A stretch of 63,879 nucleotides of DNA, counting the filler, from Thraustochytrium aureum (lineage: Eukaryota), in the NCBI GenBank assembly GCA_012862495.1. It is 6 parts of 4 records of this genome, joined end to end, with 100 filler letters (N's around TTAATTAATTAA, not from the genome) between each part and the next. Parts side by side here need not be neighbours in the genome. Positions count along the whole stretch, not along the records: positions 1 to 28,370 come from BLSG01000062.1; 5 more parts are not named here. One strand, given 5' to 3'. Below are positions 1,592 through 62,443 of the stretch, piece by piece. The notes under the pieces were generated by a model that was not told where the DNA came from, searched no databases, and saw only the letters and a list, made by a program, of their open reading frames with translations. The position numbers and the translations under genes were made by a program. Numbering within the stretch: the stretch's first letter is position 1; each line of letters opens with the position of its first letter.

Positions 1592-2026
1592 NNNNNNNNN
1601 NNNNNNNNNNNNNNNNNNNNNNNNNNNNNNNNNNNNNNNNNNNNNNNNNNNNNNNNNNNNNNNNNNNNNNNNNNNNNNNNNNNNNNNNNNNNNNNNNNNN
1701 NNNNNNNNNNNNNNNNNNNNNNNNNNNNNNNNNNNNNNNNNNNNNNNNNNNNNNNNNNNNNNNNNNNNNNNNNNNNNNNNNNNNNNNNNNNNNNNNNNNN
1801 NNNNNNNNNNNNNNNNNNNNNNNNNNNNNNNNNNNNNNNNNNNNNNNNNNNNNNNNNNNNNNNNNNNNNNNNNNNNNNNNNNNNNNNNNNNNNNNNNNNN
1901 NNNNNNNNNNNNNNNNNNNNNNNNNNNNNNNNNNNNNNNNNNNNNNNNNNNNNNNNNNNNNNNNNNNNNNNNNNNNNNNNNNNNNNNNNNNNNNNNNNNN
2001 NNNNNNNNNNNNNNNNNNNNNNNNCT

Positions 2027-3250
2027 GACGCTGCAAGCCTCAAGCGCTCACGGTCCGGCGACGACGACGAGCGCAAACAGCGCCTGATGGAGCGCAAGCG
2101 ACGCAACCGCGAGTCGGCCGAGCGCAGCCGGCAGCGCAAGCTCCAGTTCTACAAGCAGCTCGAGCACGACAACGCCGCGCTCAAGGCCGAGAACGACCGG
2201 CTCAAGACCAAGGTTGACGCGCTGGCCACGGCAAAGACCGCCGCACCCGCTCTGGCTCGCCCCGCCGACGAGGAGTTCACCAAAGAGAACGAGTCTTTGA
2301 AGACTAGAATTGCAAAGCTCGAACTCGAACTCCGCGCCGCACGGGAGCAGCTCAAGGCCAAGCCAGCCGCGGCCACCGTCCCAGCCCCCCTGCCCGCCGC
2401 GCCGCGCAGCGAGTGCGCCTGCGGCGGCTCCGTTTCCAGCCGAGCCCTCAAGCAGCTGAGAAAGAGCGCAAGCGCCGCGCACCAGGTGGACGTCCTTGCT
2501 GACCTGGACGCGATCCTCGACGGCGAGAGCGACGCGCTGGACGCCAAGACAGAGGACAAGTGTGCTTCGAGCGACTCGCTCAACAACCTCCTCGAGGACT
2601 TGATGGCCATGAACGCCATCAAGGAGGAGACCCCCGTTTTCGGTGACGTCGAGCATGAGCTGTTCGGCCTCTCGCTCTTCGCAGGGGACAGCCAAGATGA
2701 CCTGGATATTCATGGAACAGCAGTTTCCGTATGGCCTGCCTCGATGTCGGCTCGAAAGCTCGACACGTTGGCAAAGGCTTTTTTCCGCAGCTGGAATTAT
2801 CTAGGTCGTCGTCCTGTCGCCCTGCCGACGAGCGTTTCCCGTACGGCGGCGCGCTCGCGCGCCCCGCTCATGCCACCCTACACTTGCTTGAAACATTTGC
2901 GCGTGCTTTTGCCTCTCTTTCTGTTGATCCTCTCGCGCCCACGTGTCGTGCATCTTGCGAGCACCGAGACCAACTTGAAGTCCACGTGCGAGGCGCCGCG
3001 CGGTTGCGGGTGCGGCGCCTCGGGCCATCGCTGGCGAGTGTTCCTTTTCACATCATTCTCATGCTTTGCTTTTCATCACTCAATTGAAATTGATCACTCC
3101 AACAAGCTCCTCGCGCAGACCCTGGCTTCGGGCTTCTCTACCAGCGCAGCTCCACAGCTCCGCAACTCCGCTGTCCCTTGCCGCGCATGCACTCTGCAGC
3201 TCGCCGCGCAGAACAGGTTGACCAGAACAAACGCGCCTCCACAAGCCTAG
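2027..3250 (+). CDS. bZIP transcription factor, HAC1/XBP1/bZIP60-like. The 5' end lies in the gap. The unspliced frame ends at 3250; the predicted spliced form ends at TAG 2802-2804
   Basis: Basic region [24 protein letters not shown], then a leucine zipper ([19 protein letters not shown]), a second coiled coil and an acidic/hydrophobic activation-like region ([11 protein letters not shown]...LLEDLMAM). Confidence 0.9.
2721..2787 (+). other. Candidate IRE1-cleaved unconventional intron (67 nt)
   Basis: 5' hairpin ATGGAA-[CAG|CAGT]-TTCCGT (2712-2730); 3' site CCG|CAGC (2785-2791); flanking exons are complementary (2696-2711 with 2794-2810; 2681-2691 with 2814-2825). Confidence 0.7.
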
Positions 3251-4490
3251 TCCTGGTGCGGTGGCGGCAACTCTGCTGCGCCCTCGCAGAGCGCCCAGCG
3301 GCCTGCGCCGCGCTCCTGCGCACGGCCCTCCTTGAGCAGCTTGAGCAAATGTTGGCGCACCGACCGCTTTGCCCCGCGCCGCAGGATCCACGACAAGTGT
3401 TGGTCCGCGTAAATGTGGTCGACGATCTCGTCTTCGGGGCGCGCATCCGTGCAGCCCGCGTGCTTGGCCAAGTACTGAACGATCTGTTCCTCGCGCAGCT
3501 GGCGGTGCGCGAGGTACTCGCGCACGCGCTCTGCGCCGCGCTCGACGACAAGCCCGTGGCCGGGGTAAATGCGACCCGGTCGCGGGGCACGCTGCAGGCC
3601 AGCCTGGGGGGGCCTCCTCCTCTAGTCCCGACTCATCCGCCCCCTCGACGCGGCCGACGGCGGCGGCCGCTTCCAGCTCGCGCAACAAGATGCGCAGGCT
3701 GCCCACGTACTGATGCAGGTCCTCGAAAACAGCTGTCCCCGATCCGAGCACGCAGTCACCGCTAAACACGGCGCCCTCCTCCTCAAGGACCAGAGCGACG
3801 TGGTCGCTCGTGTGGCCTGGCGTCTGCACCGCGCGCAGCGTGGCGCCCGTCTCGGCAATCANNNNNNNNNNNNNNNNNNNNNNNNNNNNNNNNNNNNNNN
3901 NNNNNNNNNNNNNNNNNNNNNNNNNNNNNNNNNNNNNNNNNNNNNNNNNNNNNNNNNNNNNNNNNNNNNNNNNNNNNNNNNNNNNNNNNNNNNNNNNNNN
4001 NNNNNNNNNNNNNNNNNNNNNNNNNNNNNNNNNNNNNNNNGCTTTCGCAGCTGCGGGATGCCGCCGACGTGATCCTCGTGCTCGTGCGTGATCACAATGT
4101 GGCTCAGGGTCGCCTTCTCGTCCGCCAGGACCTGCGTCAGCAACGACACGTATGTCGCGAGCCCGTCCCCCGCGTCCACCAGGATGCGGCGAGGCCCTGT
4201 GCCCACGACGTACGTGTTGGTTCCCTGCATCGTGAACGGGCCCGGATTGAGCGCCAGCACCCGGATCACGCGCTGGGAGACGTGGCTCACCGAGGGCACG
4301 CTGGGGAGCCCCTTGGCCGCACCGCCAAAGTTGGCCACCAAATACGCGAGTCTGTGCCGCCTTCGGCCCGCGCCAGGCAGCAAGAACAGCCGGAGCGCCT
4401 GACGCCGCAGGCTCCAACCGCAAAGTACCCGAGCTGCTGCAGCAGCGCCTTGGCCCAGGCCGCGGCCTGGCTCAGCACGCTCGCCTCCAT
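3247..4490 (-). CDS. LACTB2: LACTB2-like metallo-beta-lactamase-fold protein, copy A (gap and frameshifts)
   Basis: [23 protein letters not shown] (HxHxDH), [16 protein letters not shown], and a C-terminal [13 protein letters not shown] winged-helix segment; split over several frames. Confidence 0.88.
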
Positions 4491-4967: not shown

Positions 4968-6058
4968 CTACGGGGTGTTGAAGTTGCTTCGCGAAGCATG
5001 GTCCTTGTCCGCCAGGAGCGACTCAAGCGAGAGCTCGTCGCCGACGCTTTCTTTCCCGCCTTTGCTCGATGCCTGGTCTGCCGCAGCCTGCTTGACGCCC
5101 TGGCCGCTTTTGGCGCCGCCGACGCCTTGCGCCAGGTTGGGCGACAGCTTCTGAGTCTCCAGGTAGCTGTATCGCAAGATGCCGGCCACGCTGATCACGT
5201 AGCCGACGAGCTGCATCGAGTTGACCACCTCGCCATACAGCACGACGCCGGAGAGGACGACGAGCGCGTTGCGGAGCTGCGACAGGACCTTGACCGCGAT
5301 CGAGCTCGTCAGCTTGATCACGCTGCTTGTAAGCATTTGCACGCCAAAGCCGAGCCCCCCGCGACTGCAAACTGCAACGGGTGCTCCACGATCTTGCCGA
5401 GGTCCCCCCGCTCAACGATGGTCTGCCACTCAAACACCACCCCGAGGCCCAGGAGGCAAAAGGCGCCCGCGGGCGCGAGAAAGTACTGCCCTTCCAGCAG
5501 GGAAAACTTGCAGTCCTGAAGTGCAAACTGTGTCAACACCAACCGGATCGCCTCGGTGCAGCTGCTCCCGACGGCGAGCAACAGACCAAACAGCTGTATG
5601 CTCATGTCGCCGGCGGCCGTCAAGCTCGTCCCAAAGCAAGCAACGATCAGCGCGACCCAGATATGGAACGAGACTGTCTTCTTGAGCAGCACGAAGGAAA
5701 ACAGCGTCACCACCATGGGCGTGAACGCCTTGAGGAACTGGATCAGAGCCACGCCCATATACAGGTACTGCGCGTTCCCGAACGCGAGGGTGGCGGCGTG
5801 GCAGGCCCCGACGGGCAAGATGTTCCGCATCCAGAACTTGCGGTCTACCAAATGCGCCTGCTGGAGCTCGAGGTTTCCCGAGAGGTGCAATACGCGAGTC
5901 ACGACCGTGGTAAATATCAGCCCAAGTGAGGAAAGCGTGAACGGGTACGCGAATCCAACACCGTTGGCGTCCATGATGTTCTTGTTCACGAGCATCAGCG
6001 TTGGCCCCACGATCATAAACACCGTGCAGACCGCCACGGTCTTGGCCAGGTCGGCCAT
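4968..6058 (-). CDS. Triose-phosphate/nucleotide-sugar transporter family protein (TPT/SLC35)
   Basis: LMLVNKNIM...FAYPFTL, GNAQYLYMGVALIQFLKAFTP, EAIRLVLTQ, VIKLTSSIAVKVLSQLRN; multiple TM helices; one frameshift near the C-run at about 5355. Confidence 0.88.
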
Positions 6059-7280
6059 CCCGTCTTCACGCCGTCGTTCAGGCGTGCTTTGGGGTTCGCT
6101 GCGAGCGATGCCACCCCGTCTTTTCAGCCCTCCGTCCAGTTTGCCAACAACGTGCGCCAGTACCAACCGTCACAACACGGCCAGCGCGTCCCTCCGCCGC
6201 CTCGACGGCGAGCGAGCTAGCGAGCGAGCCCTGTGCGCTCCCGCACCCGGGCCTGGTTGCGATGGTGGCCGAGTTGAAAGAGCAAGCTGCCGCAGCGTAC
6301 TTCGATGGCTCCTTTGGACGACGGACAGCTCGAGCTAGTGAATCTTGTCACGGAAAAGCTAAAGTCGTGCCGCAAATCGCTGCGAAGAGCGCCGCCGCCT
6401 GCACCCGCGGCGACCACGAATCGTATCCTTGCACAACGAGCAACGGCGTGCTCGTTCGCTGCCTGGACGCGTACTTGAAAGTCAGTACTCCACGCGCCGT
6501 GTGCACTGACGAAGTATCGACTACCTACCTACCTACAACAAGGGTGAAGGGTGGAAGCTCCAGCGAGTTCCTGGCATTGCTGAGCCAGCGATCGCAGGCG
6601 GATGTGGAGCGCTCCTCGTCGAGCCAAGCGCACACCACTCGCCAATTTGTTCGCTTTGCTGGGGCAGGCGCTGGTCCTCTCTACCTCCGAGCTCCGAGTC
6701 TTTACACGCACGCCGTGTAAAAGAAAGCGGCCGCTGTGCACAAAACGAAACACACGGCGCAGCCGGCACTCACAGAAGTGCATGCTGGCTGCAAAAACGC
6801 GCGAGCAGAGCAAGGCTGTCGTTCGAGGCCTGCCCTTCAAGTTGGCAGCTCGAAAGGAAGCTTTGCCCGGCCGAGTTGAGTTGAAGTCCTGGAAGGACGT
6901 GGACGTGCGCCTGCCTCCGTGCAACGATTCCGGCGGATTCTGCCAAGATCGTTGCGGCAAGCTTGGTTGCGGTTTGCCAACTCTCGGCAAGTGCACCCAC
7001 GGCGCGGCAGGATGCTTCCAAATCGTTGTTCCAAGGAGACCAACTCACAGCGAGCGGCCCTGAAGTTGACAAAAAAGAAAACACAGACGGACTCGCCGCC
7101 CTCCACCGCGAGAGTGGCGGAGAAGCTCGACTCGGAGTCCAGTTGTCGTGCAAAATGGCAGACCCCCAACACGCGAAAGCGAAGCCGAGCGCCAGCCTCT
7201 CCGCGGCGAAGAGCAAGCGCGGTGGCAAACGCTCGCTCGCTCTCTCGCTCGCTCGCTCGAGCAGCCGCAGCCCGGTGAAA

Positions 7281-8465
7281 ATGGGCAATAATGGTTCGCG
7301 CGGCACGCCGCTCGACGCTTGGCTGGCGCAGCACGACGAGCCAGTCGTCGACCCCGAGCGGGTCATAGTGGACCCGCACCACCACCTGTTCGACCCAACA
7401 AACGAGCCACGCGGCGACATCTCGGTGGCAGCAAAGCTGGTCGGTTGGATGAGCCCCGCATGGCGCATCCGCACCCTTCGGCTACTCTTGCCAAAGGCCG
7501 GCCTGGACGCCTTCGGGGTGCACTCGCCCGTGGTGGACCGGTTTATGGCCGACACGCTCCAGCATGACTTTGGCGGACACAATGTGGTCAACTCGGTGGT
7601 CGTCGAAGCCCAGTGGGTGGACAAGTCGCGCAAGGCCAAGGAGCTCCAGCAGGTGAGCGAGTCGAAAAAGTACTTTGAGGACTCGCAAAAGGACCCCAAG
7701 GGTTTCCCCCACGCGTGCGTCGGGTTCATCGACCTCACGGTTGGCAAAGAGCGCGCGACGGCCGCGATCAAGGAGCACAAGGCTGCCAACCCGAACCTTC
7801 GCGGCCTGCGGCACCAGCTGGCCTGGCACAGCTCGCCTGCCGTATTTTCGGCTCGGCACGCGCACGCAGAGATGTCGCGGTCCCCCGCGTTCCGCGGCGG
7901 CATCGAAGCCATGCAAGAGGCCGGCCTCTCGTTTGACATTTACGTGTACCACACGCAGCTTGCTGAGGCCGCCGAGCTGGCCGCCGCCTTCCCGGGCATG
8001 CAGTTCATCCTCGACCACGTCGGCACGCCGCTCGGCGTCGGCCCGTACAAGGGCGACAAGGGCCGCGACAAGGCGCGCAAAGAGTGGGAGGCCGGCCTCG
8101 CTCTGGTCGCGCAGCAGCCCAACGTGGTTGTCAAGCTCTCTGGCCTGCTTATGCCGGTCTGCGGGTTTGGGCTCGAGAAGCGCAGCAAGCCGCCCAGCTC
8201 GGACGAGCTCGTCGAGCTCACCGAGACGTACTACCGCTACGTGGTCGAGCTCTTCGGCGTGGACCGCTGCATGTTTGCCAGCAACTTCCCCGTGGACCGC
8301 GTCTCGGCCTCGTACACAGTGCTGTACAACTCGTTCAAAAAGATCTGCGACCGCCTCGAGCTCTCGGAGGAGGACAAAGACAAGCTCTTCCGCCGCAACG
8401 CGCGCCGCGTGTACCGGCTGGACGACGTCAAGGCGCCCGTCTCGGCGGCCGAGGAGGACAATTAG
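7281..8465 (+). CDS. Amidohydrolase_2 family TIM-barrel hydrolase (sugar-lactonase-like)
   Basis: IVDPHHHLFD, GLSFDIYVYHTQL, FILDHVGTP, NVVVKLSGL, FGVDRCMFASNFPVD, NARRVYRL. Confidence 0.9.
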   Translation: MGNNGSRGTPLDAWLAQHDEPVVDPERVIVDPHHHLFDPTNEPRGDISVAAKLVGWMSPAWRIRTLRLLLPKAGLDAFGVHSPVVDRFMADTLQHDFGGHNVVNSVVVEAQWVDKSRKAKELQQVSESKKYFEDSQKDPKGFPHACVGFIDLTVGKERATAAIKEHKAANPNLRGLRHQLAWHSSPAVFSARHAHAEMSRSPAFRGGIEAMQEAGLSFDIYVYHTQLAEAAELAAAFPGMQFILDHVGTPLGVGPYKGDKGRDKARKEWEAGLALVAQQPNVVVKLSGLLMPVCGFGLEKRSKPPSSDELVELTETYYRYVVELFGVDRCMFASNFPVDRVSASYTVLYNSFKKICDRLELSEEDKDKLFRRNARRVYRLDDVKAPVSAAEEDN

Positions 8466-8917: not shown

Positions 8918-9874
8918 ATGTCGAGCCTTACGGCGCACCTGCGGCTGGGCAAGCAGGCCCTGGAGGCCGTGGAGGACTTTACGGTGCTGAGCCCGGTCGT
9001 GACGCGCGTGATGGGCTGCAACCCGGGCCCGTACACGCTCGGAGGGACGAACACGTACTTGATTGGGAGCGGGCCGCGGAGGATCCTGTTCGACACGGGC
9101 GAGGGCAAGCCCGAGTACCTCGGCAACCTCGAGCGAGCCATGACAGCGGTAGGTTGCGCCGCGCTGCAGGCTATCGTGGTGTCGCACTGGCACTTTGATC
9201 ACCTCGGCGGCGTCCCCTCGGTGATCCAGCGCTTTGGCGCAGACATCCCCGTTCTCAAGTACATACCCGAGGTGCTCGAGGCCGCGTACGGCGGCGAAGG
9301 CGCCAAAACCCCCTACGAGATCTGGCCCAAAGAGCGGTTTCAGGCCGTCTGCCACGGTGACGTGCTGCGCACGGAAGGGGCCACGCTCAAGCTGCTGCAC
9401 ACCCCAGGGCATGCCAACGACCACGTCGTGGCGGTGCTCGAGGAAGAGGGCGCGATGTTTTCGGCCGACAATGTGCTTGGCACGGGGACCGGGGTGTTTC
9501 GCGACTTTACGCAGTACATCGCGTCGCTGCAAGCCATGCGGGACTGCCGTCCCGGGCGCTTGTACCCCGCGCACGGGCCTGTGATTGAGGAGGGCGTCGA
9601 GCGCATCGACGAGTATGTCGCCCACCGTATGGAGCGCGTGCGCCAAGTGGAGGCCGCCCTTGCCGCGGCCGAGGGCGGCCGGGCTACGGTGGAGGCGATC
9701 ACGCGCCACGTGTACCCGGCCGACCTGCCAGAGCAGCTGTTCGCGCCTGCGATGAAGAACACGCTCAACGTGCTCGAGTACCTGGAGACGCTGGAGGTGG
9801 TGCAGAACGACGAGGGGGCCGGCGCGGAGCGGCGCTTCCGGCTCTGCGGGGCCCCGCGGGCGTCGCCCATGTAG
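8918..9874 (+). CDS. LACTB2: LACTB2-like metallo-beta-lactamase-fold protein, copy B
   Basis: NPGPYTLGGTNTYLIG, SHWHFDHLGG, HTPGHANDH, FSADNVLG, LYPAHGP, EYVAHRMERVRQV; intact ORF. Confidence 0.92.
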   Translation: MSSLTAHLRLGKQALEAVEDFTVLSPVVTRVMGCNPGPYTLGGTNTYLIGSGPRRILFDTGEGKPEYLGNLERAMTAVGCAALQAIVVSHWHFDHLGGVPSVIQRFGADIPVLKYIPEVLEAAYGGEGAKTPYEIWPKERFQAVCHGDVLRTEGATLKLLHTPGHANDHVVAVLEEEGAMFSADNVLGTGTGVFRDFTQYIASLQAMRDCRPGRLYPAHGPVIEEGVERIDEYVAHRMERVRQVEAALAAAEGGRATVEAITRHVYPADLPEQLFAPAMKNTLNVLEYLETLEVVQNDEGAGAERRFRLCGAPRASPM

Positions 9875-16068: not shown

Positions 16069-17124
16069 ATGGATGGCGAGAGCAGCTCGTGCTTGCTGAG
16101 GCGCTGGAGACAGGTTCTGGTCGCGCTCGTGCTGGTTGGCGTGGTCACGTGGGCTGTCACCGACGCGGTCACCAAGCCGTGCATGGCGAAAGAGAGCGAA
16201 GGCGACCGCGTGCAAAGGCTCTATTGCGCCGACTCTATCAAAGTCGACCAAGACAACAAGGTCAAGCCAGGGCAGCCCTTCGAGTGCGGGGTGAACGGTT
16301 CCACGGTGGACGCTGCGGATGGGTGGTATTCTGACGCAATGTCGCCGCCAACGTGCGTCCGGGCCTCCTCCTGCCTCTCGGTTGGGTTCGATGCCATCCT
16401 CGAGTGGATCTCCGACAACCCGGGCACCGGGTGGGTCGCGACCGTGGTTATCTACGCCCTGCTGACGGCGTTGCTGATCCCGGGCAGCATTCTCACGATT
16501 GGGTCTGGCGTGGCGTTCGGGACGGCACTCGGCCTTGGCCTTGGCACTCTGGTGGGCGGCACAGCGGTGCTCGTGGGCGCCACGACAGGCGCCATGCTTG
16601 CGTTCCTCATCGGTCGATTTCTTCTGCGCGAGCATGTCGAGCGCTGGGCGTCGCAGTTTCCGATCATCAAGGCACTCGACAAGGCCCTGCACGTCAAGGG
16701 GTTTCAGCTGGTGGTCTTGCTTCGGCTCACGCCGGTGGTGCCCTTCAACGTGTTCAACTTTATCATGGGCAGCACGCATTGCTCGTTGAAGGACTATTTT
16801 TGGGGCACTGTCGTTGGCGTGCCTCCGGGCACCTTTGCCTTCGTGTTCATCGGCGCGCTTGTGGGGAGTGCCGCCTTTGAGGCCCCGACAACACTCGACG
16901 GCCAGACAGTTTTTCCGGAGATCTGCGTGGAGGACCCCAAAGAAGCGACCATCCGGCTTGTGCTGATTATCGCCGGCGGGATCGCGACGGTGCTTGCTGT
17001 TGTGCTCATCACTGTCTACGCGCGGCGCCAGTTCGCCAAGATCAAGCTCGAGCTGGCCATTAGCGACGGCGACGACGCAGCGGCCGAGGAGAGCGCGGCA
17101 GGCCCCCCACCTGGGGCTGCATAG
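16069..17124 (+). CDS. TVP38/TMEM64 (VTT/DedA superfamily) membrane protein, copy A
   Basis: LLIPGSILTIGSGVAFG, GAMLAFLIGRFLLR, LLRLTPVVPFNVFNF, PGTFAFVFIG. Confidence 0.92.
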   Translation: MDGESSSCLLRRWRQVLVALVLVGVVTWAVTDAVTKPCMAKESEGDRVQRLYCADSIKVDQDNKVKPGQPFECGVNGSTVDAADGWYSDAMSPPTCVRASSCLSVGFDAILEWISDNPGTGWVATVVIYALLTALLIPGSILTIGSGVAFGTALGLGLGTLVGGTAVLVGATTGAMLAFLIGRFLLREHVERWASQFPIIKALDKALHVKGFQLVVLLRLTPVVPFNVFNFIMGSTHCSLKDYFWGTVVGVPPGTFAFVFIGALVGSAAFEAPTTLDGQTVFPEICVEDPKEATIRLVLIIAGGIATVLAVVLITVYARRQFAKIKLELAISDGDDAAAEESAAGPPPGAA

Positions 17125-24630: not shown

Positions 24631-25677
24631 TCATGTGGACGGGCGCACGGCGGCGTCCCCTTCCTCGGCGCCATCGCCCTCCTCGAGCGCCAGCTCCTGC
24701 TTGATCTTGGCAAACTGGCGCCGTGCGTAGATGGTCACCAGCACGACGGCCACCACCGTTGCAACCCCGCCAGCAATGAAAAGCACGAGGCGGATAGTCG
24801 CTTCCTTGGGGTCCTCCTCGCAGAGCTCCGGGAAAACGGTGAGCCCGTTGGATGACATTGCCGTTTCGAAGGCGGCGCTCCCGACGAGAGCGCCGATAAA
24901 GACAAACGCAAAGGTCCCCGGGAGGATGCCGATGAGCGATCCCCAGAAGTAATCGCTGAAGGAACAGAGTGTGCTGCCCATGATAAAGTTGAACACGTTG
25001 AAGGGCACGATAGGGGAGAGCCGCAGCAAGAGCACAAGCTGAAACCCCTTGACTTGCAACGCCTTATCCAGCGCCTTTATCGTCGGAAACCGCTTCGCCC
25101 AGTGCTCGATGTGCTCGCGCAGCAAAAACCGACCCATGAGAAACGCGAGCACTGCGCCTGCTGTGGCGCCGACAATGACCGCGGTGCCGCCCACGACCGT
25201 GCCTACGCCAAGACCGAGCGCCGTCCCGAAGGCAACCCCGGACCCGATCGTCAGGACACTTCCCGGGATGAGCAAAACGGTCAAGACAGCGTAGATGATC
25301 GCTGTCGCGATCCACCCCGTGCCCGGGTTGTCGGCGATCCACTCGAGCATGGTGCTAAAGCCCACTGCGAGGCAGGACGACTCTCGGATGCAGGTTGGTG
25401 GCGAGTTCCCGTCAGAGTACCAGCCCTCTGCGGCGTCCACCTCTGTGCCGTTGACCCCGCACATGAACATTTGCCCTGGAGCGACCATGTTCTCCTCGAT
25501 GATATCAATCGAGCCTGCGCAAAAAAGTCTTTGAATGCGGTCCCCCTCGCCTTCGCTCGCCATGCAGGTTTGCGTCACGGCGTCAACAACCACCCACGAG
25601 ATCACGCCGACAAGAACGATTGCAACAGTGACTTGCTTCCACCTCCGCCGCAGGCACGACCTCTCATCGCCCTCCAT
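24631..25677 (-). CDS. TVP38/TMEM64 membrane protein, copy B
   Basis: Colinear with copy A along its whole length (CLRRRWKQV, GWYSD..SPPTC, LLRLSPIVPFNVFNF, EDPKEATIRLVL). Confidence 0.92.
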   Translation of the reverse strand: MEGDERSCLRRRWKQVTVAIVLVGVISWVVVDAVTQTCMASEGEGDRIQRLFCAGSIDIIEENMVAPGQMFMCGVNGTEVDAAEGWYSDGNSPPTCIRESSCLAVGFSTMLEWIADNPGTGWIATAIIYAVLTVLLIPGSVLTIGSGVAFGTALGLGVGTVVGGTAVIVGATAGAVLAFLMGRFLLREHIEHWAKRFPTIKALDKALQVKGFQLVLLLRLSPIVPFNVFNFIMGSTLCSFSDYFWGSLIGILPGTFAFVFIGALVGSAAFETAMSSNGLTVFPELCEEDPKEATIRLVLFIAGGVATVVAVVLVTIYARRQFAKIKQELALEEGDGAEEGDAAVRPST

Positions 25678-26829
25678 CTTGCCGTCCTGCTCGTCTCGCA
25701 CGACCGCGCTCATCGACGTCACCGGCGCCCGTGTCGCAACGGTCTCGGCCGCGCCTTGGAGCATACGTCGGCCTACTCCAAGCCCCGTGATCCGTGCGGT
25801 GCGCAGGCCCGCCGGTCTCCGATCGACAATGCTCCGGCTTTGCTCGTGTCGACCTCCAGCGGCGCGTTGGCGCTCTTGGCGCGTTGAGGGATTGATTGCA
25901 CGTCTTCGCATCGAGCACCCACTGCATACCGCTGCACACACTCACTCTACATCACGCCACATCCATCCGGCCGCGACGGAAGACCGACCGAGCGAGCAGG
26001 AGGCCGAGCACAGCCTCAACAGGCTACTCCAGTACCCAACGCAGAGTCCAGCAGGGCACCAGCAGCAGAGCACCAGCAGCTGCGCAGCACGAGCGAGCGC
26101 CCACGTGGTGGAGGCAAGCGTCAAGCCATCTCGAGACCATCGATAGATTCTCGGGACGAGCCACGACCTCCGACCTCGCAGACATCGCACACCCGCCGCC
26201 CATCAAGGCGCTCGCTCGGCTGCCTCCACGACGCCAACGGCACGGCAGTTTACGGCTGGCTGCTGGTTGCCGTTGGCCACGCGTCAACCATCAATCGGCC
26301 GCTGCGGCGTTCGTCCCTGGCGATCGACGTCCATGGCCTGCCGCGACAGGCTGGACCTGCGCGGGCGGCGTGAGTCGCGTTGGCCGTGGGCGCACTGAGA
26401 GTGGTACTCTTTGAGTTCGCACGAGGTACTCTGCTCAGCTGCTGGGCGCCTGGGCGCCTGCGCGCCTGAGCGCGAGCGCCTGCGGCGAATTGCGCGCCGC
26501 CCGAGATGGCTTGCGCCCATGTCGCCTGGCGGCCTCGGCCCTCGGTCGATCAGCCCACCGGCGAGCCCGGCGTCGGCGGCCTCGGCCGGCGCNNNNNNNN
26601 NNNNNNNNNNNNNNNNNNNNNNNNNNNNNNNNNNNNNNNNNNNNNNNNNNNNNNNNNNNNNNNNNNNNNNNNNNNNNNNNNNNNNNNNNNNNNNNNNNNN
26701 NNNNNNNNNNNNNNNNNNNNNNNNNNNNNNNNNNNNNNNNNNNNNNNNNNNNNNNNNNNNNNNNNNNNNNNNNNNNNNNNNNNNNNNNNNNNNNNNNNNN
26801 NNNNNNNNNNNNNNNNNNNNNNNNNNNGG

Positions 26830-28370: not shown

Positions 28371-28470
28371 NNNNNNNNNNNNNNNNNNNNNNNNNNNNNN
28401 NNNNNNNNNNNNNNTTAATTAATTAANNNNNNNNNNNNNNNNNNNNNNNNNNNNNNNNNNNNNNNNNNNN
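28371..28470. other. Artificial scaffold spacer N44-TTAATTAATTAA-N44 (also at about 48118-48217, 56169-56268, 58891-58990 and 62344-62443)
   Basis: Identical 12-mer with stops in all six frames, centred in a 100-nt N block, five times. Confidence 0.97.
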
Positions 28471-46499: not shown

Positions 46500-48598
46500 T
46501 TTCCTTCACGACAANNNNNNNNNNNNNNNNNNNNNNNNNNNNNNNNNNNNNNNNNNNNNNNNNNNNNNNNNNNNNNNNNNNNNNNNNNNNNNNNNNNNNN
46601 NNNNNNNNNNNNNNNNNNNNNNNNNNNNNNNNNNNNNNNNNNNNNNNNNNNNNNNNNNNNNNNNNNNNNNNNNNNNNNNNNNNNNNNNNNNNNNNNNNNN
46701 NNNNNNNNNNNNNNNNNNNNNNNNNNNNNNNNNNNNNNNNNNNNNNNNNNNNNNNNNNNNNNNNNNNNNNNNNNNNNNNNNNNNNNNNNNNNNNNNNNNN
46801 NNNNNNNNNNNNNNNNNNNNNNNNNNNNNNNNNNNNNNNNNNNNNNNNNNNNNNNNNNNNNNNNNNNNNNNNNNNNNNNNNNNNNCGTGCTCTGCTGCTG
46901 CTCCGCTGCTGCTCTGCCACTCCTCTCCTCCCTCCTCACGCTGCAAGCCGCTCCACCGCAACAGGCGAGAGTCCGCCCTCGATACACCCCTGGGGCAGCG
47001 GGTCGACCAATGGCTCGCGCGCCGGACGACCTCTGACCGCCCTGCGCACGCCCCACCACACACGGAGGACCCTAACCCTGGGCGGTATTGCGGGCGCGGC
47101 GCGGGTTTGAGGGGCCCAGGGACGGTGCGCGGCCGGCGCGCTGCGGAGGTGTTTGTTTGTTTTTTTTCTTCGCGCGAGCGCCTTGCTCCTGCCGCGCGGG
47201 GCCATGCTGGAGCGGGCTGGATGGCCTTGGCATGCATTGCGCAGAGCGGTGGGGTCGTCGGCTGGGCGCCACGGATTGGTGGTCGAGCATGCTCGTGGGC
47301 GAGCTCTTGCTCTTGGGGCCGGGAAGTGCGGTGTGGCTGGCTGCCCGGCGCGGGGTCTGACCACGGACGTGGGTTTTGATCAAGAGCGATTGGACAGGCT
47401 TGCGGGCCAAGAAAGCGAGAGTCCTGCGCGTCTGCGAGGCCAAGGGGAACCCAGCAGGCCCGCTACAATCCCTGCAACTCCCCCCTCCTTTCCGAAAACG
47501 CCGCGAATGACCCCGGGACACGAACAAAGCAGGGTGGAAGCCGGTCCAGCGGTCCACAAGAAAGACAACGAAACTTGGCCCTTGCTGGCGCGCTCGGGGC
47601 GGCTGCGACAAAAAAAAAGGCTGATCGGGCGGCTTCAAGTTGGTGGTCCAAAACGCATTTTATCTCCGTGCACTTTTTTCTGAATGCGCTGCGCTGCGCT
47701 GCGCTGCGCTGCGCTGCGCTTGAAGAAACCACCAACTGCCTACAAACCTTATTGATGCAATAGGCCAGGCTGCGATTGCGAGCAAGAGGCGCTCTCCTTG
47801 CAGTGAGGCAGTCTGCGCCGTTCCGTCCCGGTAGGGCCGGAACTGATGCCATGTCCCCAACCCAAATCTTCATGACATGGTCGTCCAAGCGCGCGTCCCG
47901 AAACGAGTTCCCAGCACACACCGTTCGCTGCTGCTGCGCTGGGAACGCTCGTCATGTTGCAGCTTTTGGAAGGTGGCACGCACTTTATTGCTCAGCGGAG
48001 CAGCCCGGCCATTCACGGCAAGGACCTGCCCCTGCACTCTGCTCGACAAACAGTGCTGCGGCTCCGAGCCGCTTTGCCGCGCGATGCACTTGCGGGAGCA
48101 TGCGGGAGCCGCTGCGTNNNNNNNNNNNNNNNNNNNNNNNNNNNNNNNNNNNNNNNNNNNNTTAATTAATTAANNNNNNNNNNNNNNNNNNNNNNNNNNN
48201 NNNNNNNNNNNNNNNNNCTGCGTGAATGTTACCAGTGCAAGGGGAGCTTGCTGCACGGGCGCCCTGGCGTGACTGCCAGGGCGCGCAGGCGCAGCTGTTT
48301 CACATGCAAAACGCCGCGTTCCAACAGCATCTGCTACTAGCTAGTACCCCATGGCACGCACTTGCGCGAGCGGGTTCCGCTCTTCGCAGCCACCAGAGTG
48401 TGCAGGGAAGCAGCAGGTCGAAACGAGCAGTTGCTCGAGCTGCTTCGACGCCGGCCTTTCAGGCGCTCGACGCGGCGGACGCGAGCTGCTTGGCGTCTGC
48501 GAGGCGGCCTGGTTGCCGTGGACTGGCGGCCTCTGGCTGGGCAAACTGCAACGCTTGAACTGCTAGGGATCCGCTCTGCACGGCGGATTCGTCGTGGG

Positions 48599-56168: not shown

Positions 56169-56342
56169 NNNNNNNNNNNNNNNNNNNNNNNNNNNNNNNN
56201 NNNNNNNNNNNNTTAATTAATTAANNNNNNNNNNNNNNNNNNNNNNNNNNNNNNNNNNNNNNNNNNNNCAGCCCGGCAGCCAGGCAGACAGGCCAGGCAG
56301 GCAGGCAGGCAGGCAGGCAGATAGGCGGTCAGGCGGGCGAGG

Positions 56343-58747: not shown

Positions 58748-59708
58748 CCCGCGCCACCCGCAACCAACCCTGCGCGCGGCGCGGGCGCCCGGCGCTACGC
58801 TGCGCGCTTACGAGCAAGCGCGCAAGCCCCTGCGCGGGTTGGAGGGACGGTGCTCGCTCGGGGATGGAGCGAGAGATCCGATGGGATGAANNNNNNNNNN
58901 NNNNNNNNNNNNNNNNNNNNNNNNNNNNNNNNNNTTAATTAATTAANNNNNNNNNNNNNNNNNNNNNNNNNNNNNNNNNNNNNNNNNNNNCGCCGAGCAC
59001 TACGTGAATGAGAGCCTTTCAATTCAAAAGAAGTGACGCTGACACTCGAGCCATCCTGCCCACTTAATTAAAGAAAAAAAATCACGTAACGTCGCTGCTT
59101 GATTGACTGCTGAAGAAGCCACCAACGCCACCAACGGTCACGTGAAAAGGGCAGCGCAGACGCGGGTCATTCTGCTTTTGCCAGTCCTGCCAATCTGCGG
59201 GTAATCGTGTGCCTGTGAATTTGGAAAGCAAAAAGCGGTGCTCTTGCCATCGACTTCTTTCCCCAAGCCCCAAAGCCTCTCGTGGCAGTGCCAGGAGTGT
59301 CGCTTTCATGCTGCGCGTCTGCTGGCAGCCGTGGAGTGCAGAGTTCTATCCGTTCAGTCCGCATCCTGCGTTTCGCACTCGCGGCGGTAAAACTGTAGCT
59401 AATTCCTGAATACAAAGCGCGAGACACGTGATCCGTCGCGCTGGAAGATCTCTTTTCAATACACCACCAACCACCAACAACCACAAGTAAACAACAACGG
59501 ATACCTTCAACAGGCAAACCGCGTCCTTGCGCTTCCAAGCTCCCGAGGGTCTTGGCGGACTGTTGGACTGACTGCGAGACGAAACGGACCTTCACAGCAA
59601 CGCGCTGTTTAGAATTCTCCCAAGAATAAGGGTCATGCCGCCGACGCATCGCTGCGGCCGGCTACTCGCGACCAGCGCAAAACCCCGCAACGCAGGCGTG
59701 GCGGGGAG

Positions 59709-61902: not shown

Positions 61903-62443
61903 TGGGGCAAATGGCCAACTCGCAAGTCTAAGCAAGTAGCCCGAAGAACAAACTTGTCGCCTGCGTCCACAATCATCGTCGCGAAAACGAGGTGCGCTAC
62001 CCAGTATGGATGCGCGACTTGCGCAAGACAGCCCAATCGTGGCATAATAGCTGTCGACGAGGCGCCTCAAGGTCGCAGAGGCGCTCGAGCGGCGTCAGTA
62101 GTCGAAGCGCGGAGGCAAAAGAGAATTCGACTGGTGCTGCCGCGCTCCGCTGCGTGGCCCGCAAACAAGACGAACCAGCTCACTGCCAGGGAGGGGCAAT
62201 GTAAAGAAAGCACGATGTGGCAGAGCCGGAGCCTGAGTTTACGATTCTGATGGGCGTCCTATGCTCATGCACTCAACGGCGCCACGGGATGCGTTGGGCC
62301 TGCTTGAGACCAAAACAAGACGGATTCACAAATATTTTTTTAANNNNNNNNNNNNNNNNNNNNNNNNNNNNNNNNNNNNNNNNNNNNTTAATTAATTAAN
62401 NNNNNNNNNNNNNNNNNNNNNNNNNNNNNNNNNNNNNNNNNNN

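Follow-up and report, generated by a model that had tools for sequence, protein, structure and literature searches.

A probable IRE1-type intron in a bZIP gene of Thraustochytrium aureum and its relation to HAC1, XBP1 and bZIP60

In budding yeast the HAC1 message carries a 252-nt intron that is excised by Ire1, which in this organism needs a 7-nt loop, and after joining of the exons by Trl1 the protein gains an activation domain. Measurements on the yeast enzyme define the motif CNG↓(C/A)NGN, in which the arrow denotes the cut, and loop sizes are loose for fission-yeast Ire1 (PMC8104961). The metazoan counterpart XBP1 is processed by IRE1alpha and RtcB, with a 26-nt intron in a bifurcated stem-loop (PMC4687415; PMC8674358); the mammalian motif reads CNG↓CAGN (PMC8674358), the joined exons zip up after release (PMC4687415) and splicing adds an activation domain. 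In Arabidopsis, IRE1A and IRE1B remove 23 nt from bZIP60, whose second loop measures 8 nt, and a long C-terminal tail is swapped for a shorter end (PMC3216516). The usual rule for the family prescribes two 7-nt loops (PMC4891664).

Splicing by IRE1 is reported for very few messages (PMC13149111), and for protists such as Dictyostelium a review had yet to name the factor that is spliced (PMC6025073). A literature search over mostly open-access texts, supplements aside, found no IRE1 substrate for thraustochytrids or other stramenopiles: the P. infestans kinome paper does not contain IRE as a whole word, the P. sojae GRASP paper has IRE1 only in a reference, and those IRE1 passages that were found in the thraustochytrid UPR literature concern Chlamydomonas. 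Here we describe a segment of 70 nt within a bZIP gene of Thraustochytrium aureum (assembly GCA_012862495.1) that is very probably a non-spliceosomal intron of the HAC1/XBP1/bZIP60 type cut out by IRE1. The mechanism is of a known kind; its dependence on IRE1 at this locus is what we infer. The window, that is the whole stretch of DNA analysed, comprises 63,879 nucleotides, and the features on which the argument turns lie within it as follows.

2027 to 2720, plus strand: 5' exon of the bZIP gene, as far as its coding sequence is visible (from the open frame)
2072 to 2227, plus strand: bZIP domain, spanning residues 16-67 in the visible frame (Pfam bZIP_1 E 3.8e-9, bZIP_2 E 1.5e-9)
2495 to 2719, plus strand: acidic region adjoining the splice site (D/E 20 versus K/R 3 in 75 residues)
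2673 to 2711, plus strand: 5' strand of the predicted exon-exon helix, pairing with 2794-2834 at probabilities mostly >0.9
2712 to 2730, plus strand: predicted 5' splice hairpin, with a 6-pair stem and the 7-nt loop CAG↓CAGT (2718-2724), cut after G2720
2720 to 3250, plus strand: tail of 176 residues, read only with the intron retained, with a short hydrophobic stretch at 2897-2935
2721 to 2790, plus strand: probable non-spliceosomal intron, 70 nt (3n+1); joint 2717 to 2788 with four ambiguous letters, in sequencing runs X2 and X3
2733 to 2779, plus strand: stable hairpin arm within the intron, with pair probabilities of 0.85-1.0 for 15 of 16 pairs
2783 to 2796, plus strand: predicted 3' splice hairpin, with a 4-pair stem, a 6-nt loop (2787-2792) and CAG↓CTG (2788-2793), cut after G2790
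2791 to 2804, plus strand: coding part of the 3' exon, completing Ala, then G-I-I and a stop at 2802-2804 (translation of the joined form)
2794 to 2834, plus strand: 3' strand of the exon-exon helix (from the fold)

The bZIP domain is encoded upstream of the intron, and its matches to bZIP_1 and bZIP_2 both exceed the curated Pfam cut-offs; the start codon of the gene is masked by an N gap (1592-2024), and the N-terminus is longer in the relatives. A preliminary description of this DNA, made from sequence alone, had placed an acidic, activation-like region directly before the site, and the composition of the last 75 residues bears this out; the region is likely to be an activation domain. A skip of 3n+1 shifts the frame and changes the C-terminus: removal of the intron shortens the visible protein from 407 to 235 residues and gives it a new end, TAGII-stop, straight after the acidic region. 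The stop codon foreseen earlier at 2802-2804 is the one used, and the ending foreseen with it, TAAGII-stop, gives way to TAGII-stop. A transmembrane anchor of the bZIP60 kind in the unspliced tail was considered and is not supported: the best 19-residue hydropathy value is a marginal 1.69, a contig of run X3 carries a 7-letter insertion behind 2923 that shifts the frame within the hydrophobic stretch, and neither the 176-residue tail nor this stretch is conserved among the relatives. Runs X3 and X4 also share a 24-letter in-frame insertion at 2356, in a Pro/Ala-rich linker. Upstream of the gene, seven ACGT cores lie in 1-1130 (about 3.6 expected), among them TGACGT at 511 and ACGTCA at 912; judged by their sequence, the ACGT-core elements within 500-1020 could be bZIP sites for self-regulation.

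The form lacking the intron was sought in public contigs, aligned over 2025-3400. Eight runs were found, none of them on record as RNA, and six were compared (X1 to X4, X6 and X7). X1 is a DNA-like run that covers the site, and X2 to X4 belong to one study whose organism label differs from that of the best DNA run; we guess the latter three to be RNA, on indirect support. These RNA-like runs hold 17-23 million assembled letters with longest records of 5.9-10.2 kb, and the depth is at least 55 on the bZIP coding contigs versus 3-7 on the next gene, depth being a poor basis for ranking. The 70-nt joint occurs in two of the three RNA-like runs (X2 and X3, not X4) and is absent from the single DNA-like run, and a form without the intron therefore exists in runs whose RNA status is guessed. 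Its contig depth, set against that of the unspliced form, is 22.4 versus 52.2 in X2 and 43.2 versus 138.9 in X3, equivalent by this rough measure to about 24-30% of local contig depth (about 30% in X2 and 24% in X3). Contig cover ends near 2944 in X2 and near 2811 in X4, and absence beyond these points is not counted as evidence; X6 and X7, which have a small share and identical values and presumably represent a single data set, reach no further than 2704, at a depth of 2.9. At a candidate GT-AG intron of the neighbouring gene (about 4341-4417, minus strand), chosen as a control, the contigs end short of the feature, at 4297 and 4328.

The short side of the joint measures 24 letters, under the threshold of 30-31, and the joint is known from coordinates rather than from letters. 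Its length was settled by simulating contig ends in a graph with an assumed k of 31, in which the SNP places 2812 and 2814 were fitted from the contig ends; this fit has no bearing on the contig end at 2721 or the contig start at 2788. Two alleles are carried by runs X2 to X4. The observed contigs (2613-2721 twice, 2693-2811 with 119 letters, 2788-2844 with 57 letters, and a 49-letter contig across the joint that includes the 24-letter side) are matched by the simulation only with a 70-nt skip and with both forms arising from both alleles. The preliminary description had proposed an intron of 67 nt and had named two GT-AG introns, 2723-2790 and 2729-2790, as what would speak against it. Neither these introns, 68 and 62 nt in length, nor the 67-nt skip are seen, and all three predict contig ends other than those observed; a skipped form does exist, of 70 nt instead of 67.

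Five equivalent registers, indistinguishable in the contig data, describe this skip, with the ends CA..CG, AG..GC, GC..CA, CA..AG and AG..GC. Read on either strand, all five lack GT-AG and GC-AG ends, and the spliceosomal (U2/U12) pairs GT-AG, GC-AG and AT-AC occur in none of them. We picked the register 2721-2790, which alone has G↓C at both cuts, CAG↓CAG (2720/2721) and CAG↓CTG (2790/2791), each within CNG↓(C/A)NG. Both sites match the full yeast motif CNG↓(C/A)NGN, and CNG↓CAGN, the mammalian motif, is matched at the 5' site as well. The joint is compatible with the 5' cut after G2720 that had been put forward from the sequence.

Because a 4-nt direct repeat, CAGC (2718-2721 and 2788-2791), flanks the skip, the joint could have been made by reverse transcriptase switching templates, in which case the structure described below would serve otherwise and no cellular splicing would be involved. 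Artefacts of this type have been described at direct repeats (PMC13149111), the two copies are brought close to each other by a fold of great stability, and all data on the joint are assembled contigs from one study. However, no joint is found at the longer repeats across the structure, one of 6 nt (offset 58) and two of 5 nt (offsets 79 and 89), nor at two other repeats of 4 nt; a single one of the six repeats of at least 4 nt is used, and it is the one that gives G↓C at both cuts. The share of the skipped form in local contig depth, rough as that measure is, and the relatives of about 33% identity whose proteins terminate or change frame at the matching point also count against a template switch, which we regard as improbable.

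The RNA structure predicted around the intron is exceptional for this DNA. For 2665-2845 the folding energy is -81.9 kcal/mol (z = -5.52), a value that none of 200 shuffles equals; none of 343 GC-matched stretches of 181 nt from the window folds as well, and after correction for GC only one stretch out of 1182 has a lower energy. A structured element had been claimed at 2673-2834, and it is upheld by these figures; all 13 of the motifs named with it, and the stop codon, lie at the coordinates given for them. The predicted fold is a four-way junction composed of the exon-exon helix, the 5' hairpin, the inner arm and a weak 3' hairpin. Pair probabilities are mostly >0.9 in the helices 2673-2691/2814-2834 and 2696-2708/2798-2810 and in the inner arm (2733-2779), so that a helix between the exons is predicted with high probability to span both cut halves; 2709-2711 pair with 2794-2796 in the joined form only, lengthening the exon helix by three pairs. 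By itself, the excised intron folds at -22.4 kcal/mol.

The two cleavage sites differ in how closely they follow the family. At the 5' site the 7-nt loop on a 6-bp stem that had been proposed earlier is present in the predicted ensemble, within 0.1 kcal/mol of the optimum; the lowest-energy hairpin itself contains an additional C2718-G2723 pair (probability 0.68). The 3' hairpin is predicted as 2783-2786/2793-2796, with the G at +3 in the closing pair, and an alternative register with an 8-nt loop costs 4 kcal/mol. The model accordingly departs at the 3' site from the arrangement usual in the family, an unpaired motif within a loop of 7 nt, or of 8 nt in plants. The preliminary description had expected this hairpin to be non-canonical, and had misplaced its motif: centring the loop on CCGCAGC, for a cut CCG↓CAG, costs 5.6 kcal/mol, and the cut indicated by the joint is CAG↓CTG after G2790. 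Since the predicted 3' loop departs from the 7-nt rule, we class the intron as a variant acting in the manner of the HAC1/XBP1/bZIP60 family. Of the 2035 consensus motifs in the window, 21 lie in a 7-nt loop on a stem of at least five pairs, so such a site is not rare alone; it is the whole architecture, not the single loop motif, that stands out. A scan of 2300-3200 against Rfam gave four matches, none near its gathering score and none on the element. Allele differences at 2670 and 2692 fall on unpaired positions, and are too few to count as evidence.

The 3' side of the structure also bears on a removal of the segment in vivo by a route other than IRE1, either through the spliceosome, which would combine an abnormal donor with the pyrimidine-rich AG at 2790, or through a different endonuclease. 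The stretch 2779-2790 resembles an ordinary acceptor, with a run of T followed by CAG, the 3' loop as predicted is at odds with the rule of 7 nt, and IRE1 is presumed for this organism. Set against this, the intron begins with CA in the register that ends at AG-2790 and the GT donors close by at 2723 and 2729 are left unused, the 5' site shows the consensus motif within a loop of 7 nt, and a long helix between the exons is something that spliceosomal splicing does not need; we consider such a route quite improbable. Least credible of all is the idea that the strain behind X2 to X4 has a second gene copy or a deletion allele in its genome. In its favour, no DNA run was found under the organism label of these runs, their RNA status is guessed and two alleles are visible in them; on the other side, the contigs of both alleles stop at 2721, as they would only if each allele gave both forms, the 162- and 232-letter contigs predicted by a one-allele deletion are not seen, all three one-allele scenarios fail in the k=31 simulation, and the DNA-like run X1 is without the joint.

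We return to 2721-2790 as an intron most likely excised by IRE1. In the proposed sequence of events the long exon-exon helix is predicted to hold the two splice hairpins and the intron-internal arm at one junction; IRE1 would cut at the G↓C of both motifs, the freed exon ends would zip up by the three extra pairs, and a ligase of the RtcB or Trl1 type would join them. Without its unconserved tail of 176 residues the factor would then be active, and ER stress would be the trigger; a role of the switch in ER stress seems likely to us. How the unspliced form would be kept inactive is a matter for conjecture, and our first guess is instability of the protein or of the message.

The locus shares with XBP1 (PMC4687415; PMC8674358) a bZIP message with an exon-exon stem and two hairpins, G↓C cuts in motifs of the CNG↓CAGN type (exact at the 5' site), a frame shift and a predicted zipping of the exons; unlike XBP1 it has a 70-nt intron, a third, internal arm and a predicted 6-nt 3' loop with CAG↓CTG, and its splicing shortens the protein rather than adding an activation domain. 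As in bZIP60 (PMC3216516), a long C-terminal tail is exchanged for a shorter end and the second loop is not of 7 nt, whereas the new end comprises only three residues and the tail that is lost contains no transmembrane segment that is either convincing or conserved. With HAC1 (PMC8104961) it has in common two sites that fit the yeast motif and a long intron; it differs in the 3' loop, in the absence of a gained activation domain and in the lack of intron pairing with the visible upstream region, in that each of 40 control stretches pairs more strongly than 1050-1591 does; sequence close to the start is masked by Ns. Chlamydomonas, a unicellular lipid-storing eukaryote in which CrIRE1 splices CrbZIP1 with ties to lipid remodelling (PMC13545648), offers a likeness by description, not by sequence, and unlike the present organism belongs to the green lineage.

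Relatives of the bZIP protein are few, four being found by single query and eight by profile. A search of 1.84 billion representatives returned seven family members, all already known (E <1e-23), the next match having an E of 4.8e-14. Hondaea fermentalgiana and Mucochytrium quahogii, which we take to be thraustochytrids, are the only named organisms among the close relatives. The proteins form eight clusters, three of which have several members, each with two C-terminal forms. In two of these three the forms diverge directly after ESA, short and long forms parting there (P0008/P0013 versus P0012, and P0005 versus P0002/P0006/P0007). On the A-V-G side are MMETSP transcripts (in both clusters) and one short Logan contig; A-A-F and a long tail characterise the remaining members, among them the two products of 22,915-letter contigs. 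In the switch of the P0008/P0012 type the protein ends after V-G-A-L, at a position aligned with the site in this gene, and the P0005/P0006 type adds an acidic tail of 40 residues. Judged from the protein sequences, divergence after ESA would be the pattern left by a cut after the G of an Ala codon between CNG↓CNG motifs. Among the five single-member clusters P0004, which is 33% identical, ends with the same TAGII-stop as the spliced product here, and P0010 and P0011, with an acidic region, G-A-A-V-S and a long tail, resemble the unspliced frame.

Three clusters do not fit. P0001 has Pro after T-A and a short end that cannot supply a G at +3, Hondaea P0003 ends ahead of any such site, and in the Mucochytrium cluster (P0009, P0014 and P0015) the two forms diverge beyond Leu 189 of P0014 with no fit to CNG↓CNG, which could reflect a variant site or an ordinary intron. 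The splice position is conserved at the protein level in some relatives, not in all. A metagenome scan produced 140 pattern matches at eight loci, none of them an orthologue, as by our reading their translations lack the acidic region with the splice position. The paralogues P0006 and P0012 both derive from Logan contigs, the longest of 22,915 letters, and may share one contig.

A broader reading is conceivable, and we offer it with some doubt: thraustochytrids would possess an IRE1-bZIP switch with rules of its own, including a 6-nt (or remodelled) loop set in a four-way junction, and two spliced paralogues of opposite logic, apparently in one genome, the one losing a tail (this gene and the P0008/P0012 type) and the other gaining an acidic tail (the P0005/P0006 type). 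A thraustochytrid substrate would extend the IRE1 switch to the heterotrophic branch of the stramenopiles and would provide a natural test of the loops that IRE1 accepts. It would also allow ER stress to be read out by a single RT-PCR step in organisms that industry uses as a source of omega-3 oils, and in which gene models built from genomic DNA would give these bZIP factors the wrong C-terminus.

Several other features of the window deserve mention. The gaps at 28371-28470, 48118-48217, 56169-56268, 58891-58990 and 62344-62443 each consist of 44 N, 12 letters and 44 N, and are an artefact of assembly or masking. Six proteins encoded in the window have no exact-sequence match in the protein collection. 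The neighbouring gene (3080-4490, minus strand), whose 3' end may overlap the 3' region of the bZIP gene, resembles in translation a metallo-beta-lactamase-fold protein and has an apparent frame break near 3600; a similar gene lies at 8918-9874. A member of the triose-phosphate transporter family occupies 4968-6169 on the minus strand, with an apparent frame break near 5320-5410 that is perhaps an assembly error in a run of C. The amidohydrolase (PF04909) at 7155-8465 has, after a few eukaryote-type matches, bacterial relatives at about 40% identity, and its sequence makes an old gene transfer possible. Two similar membrane-protein paralogues, at 16069-17124 and 24631-25911, lie 8.5 kb apart.
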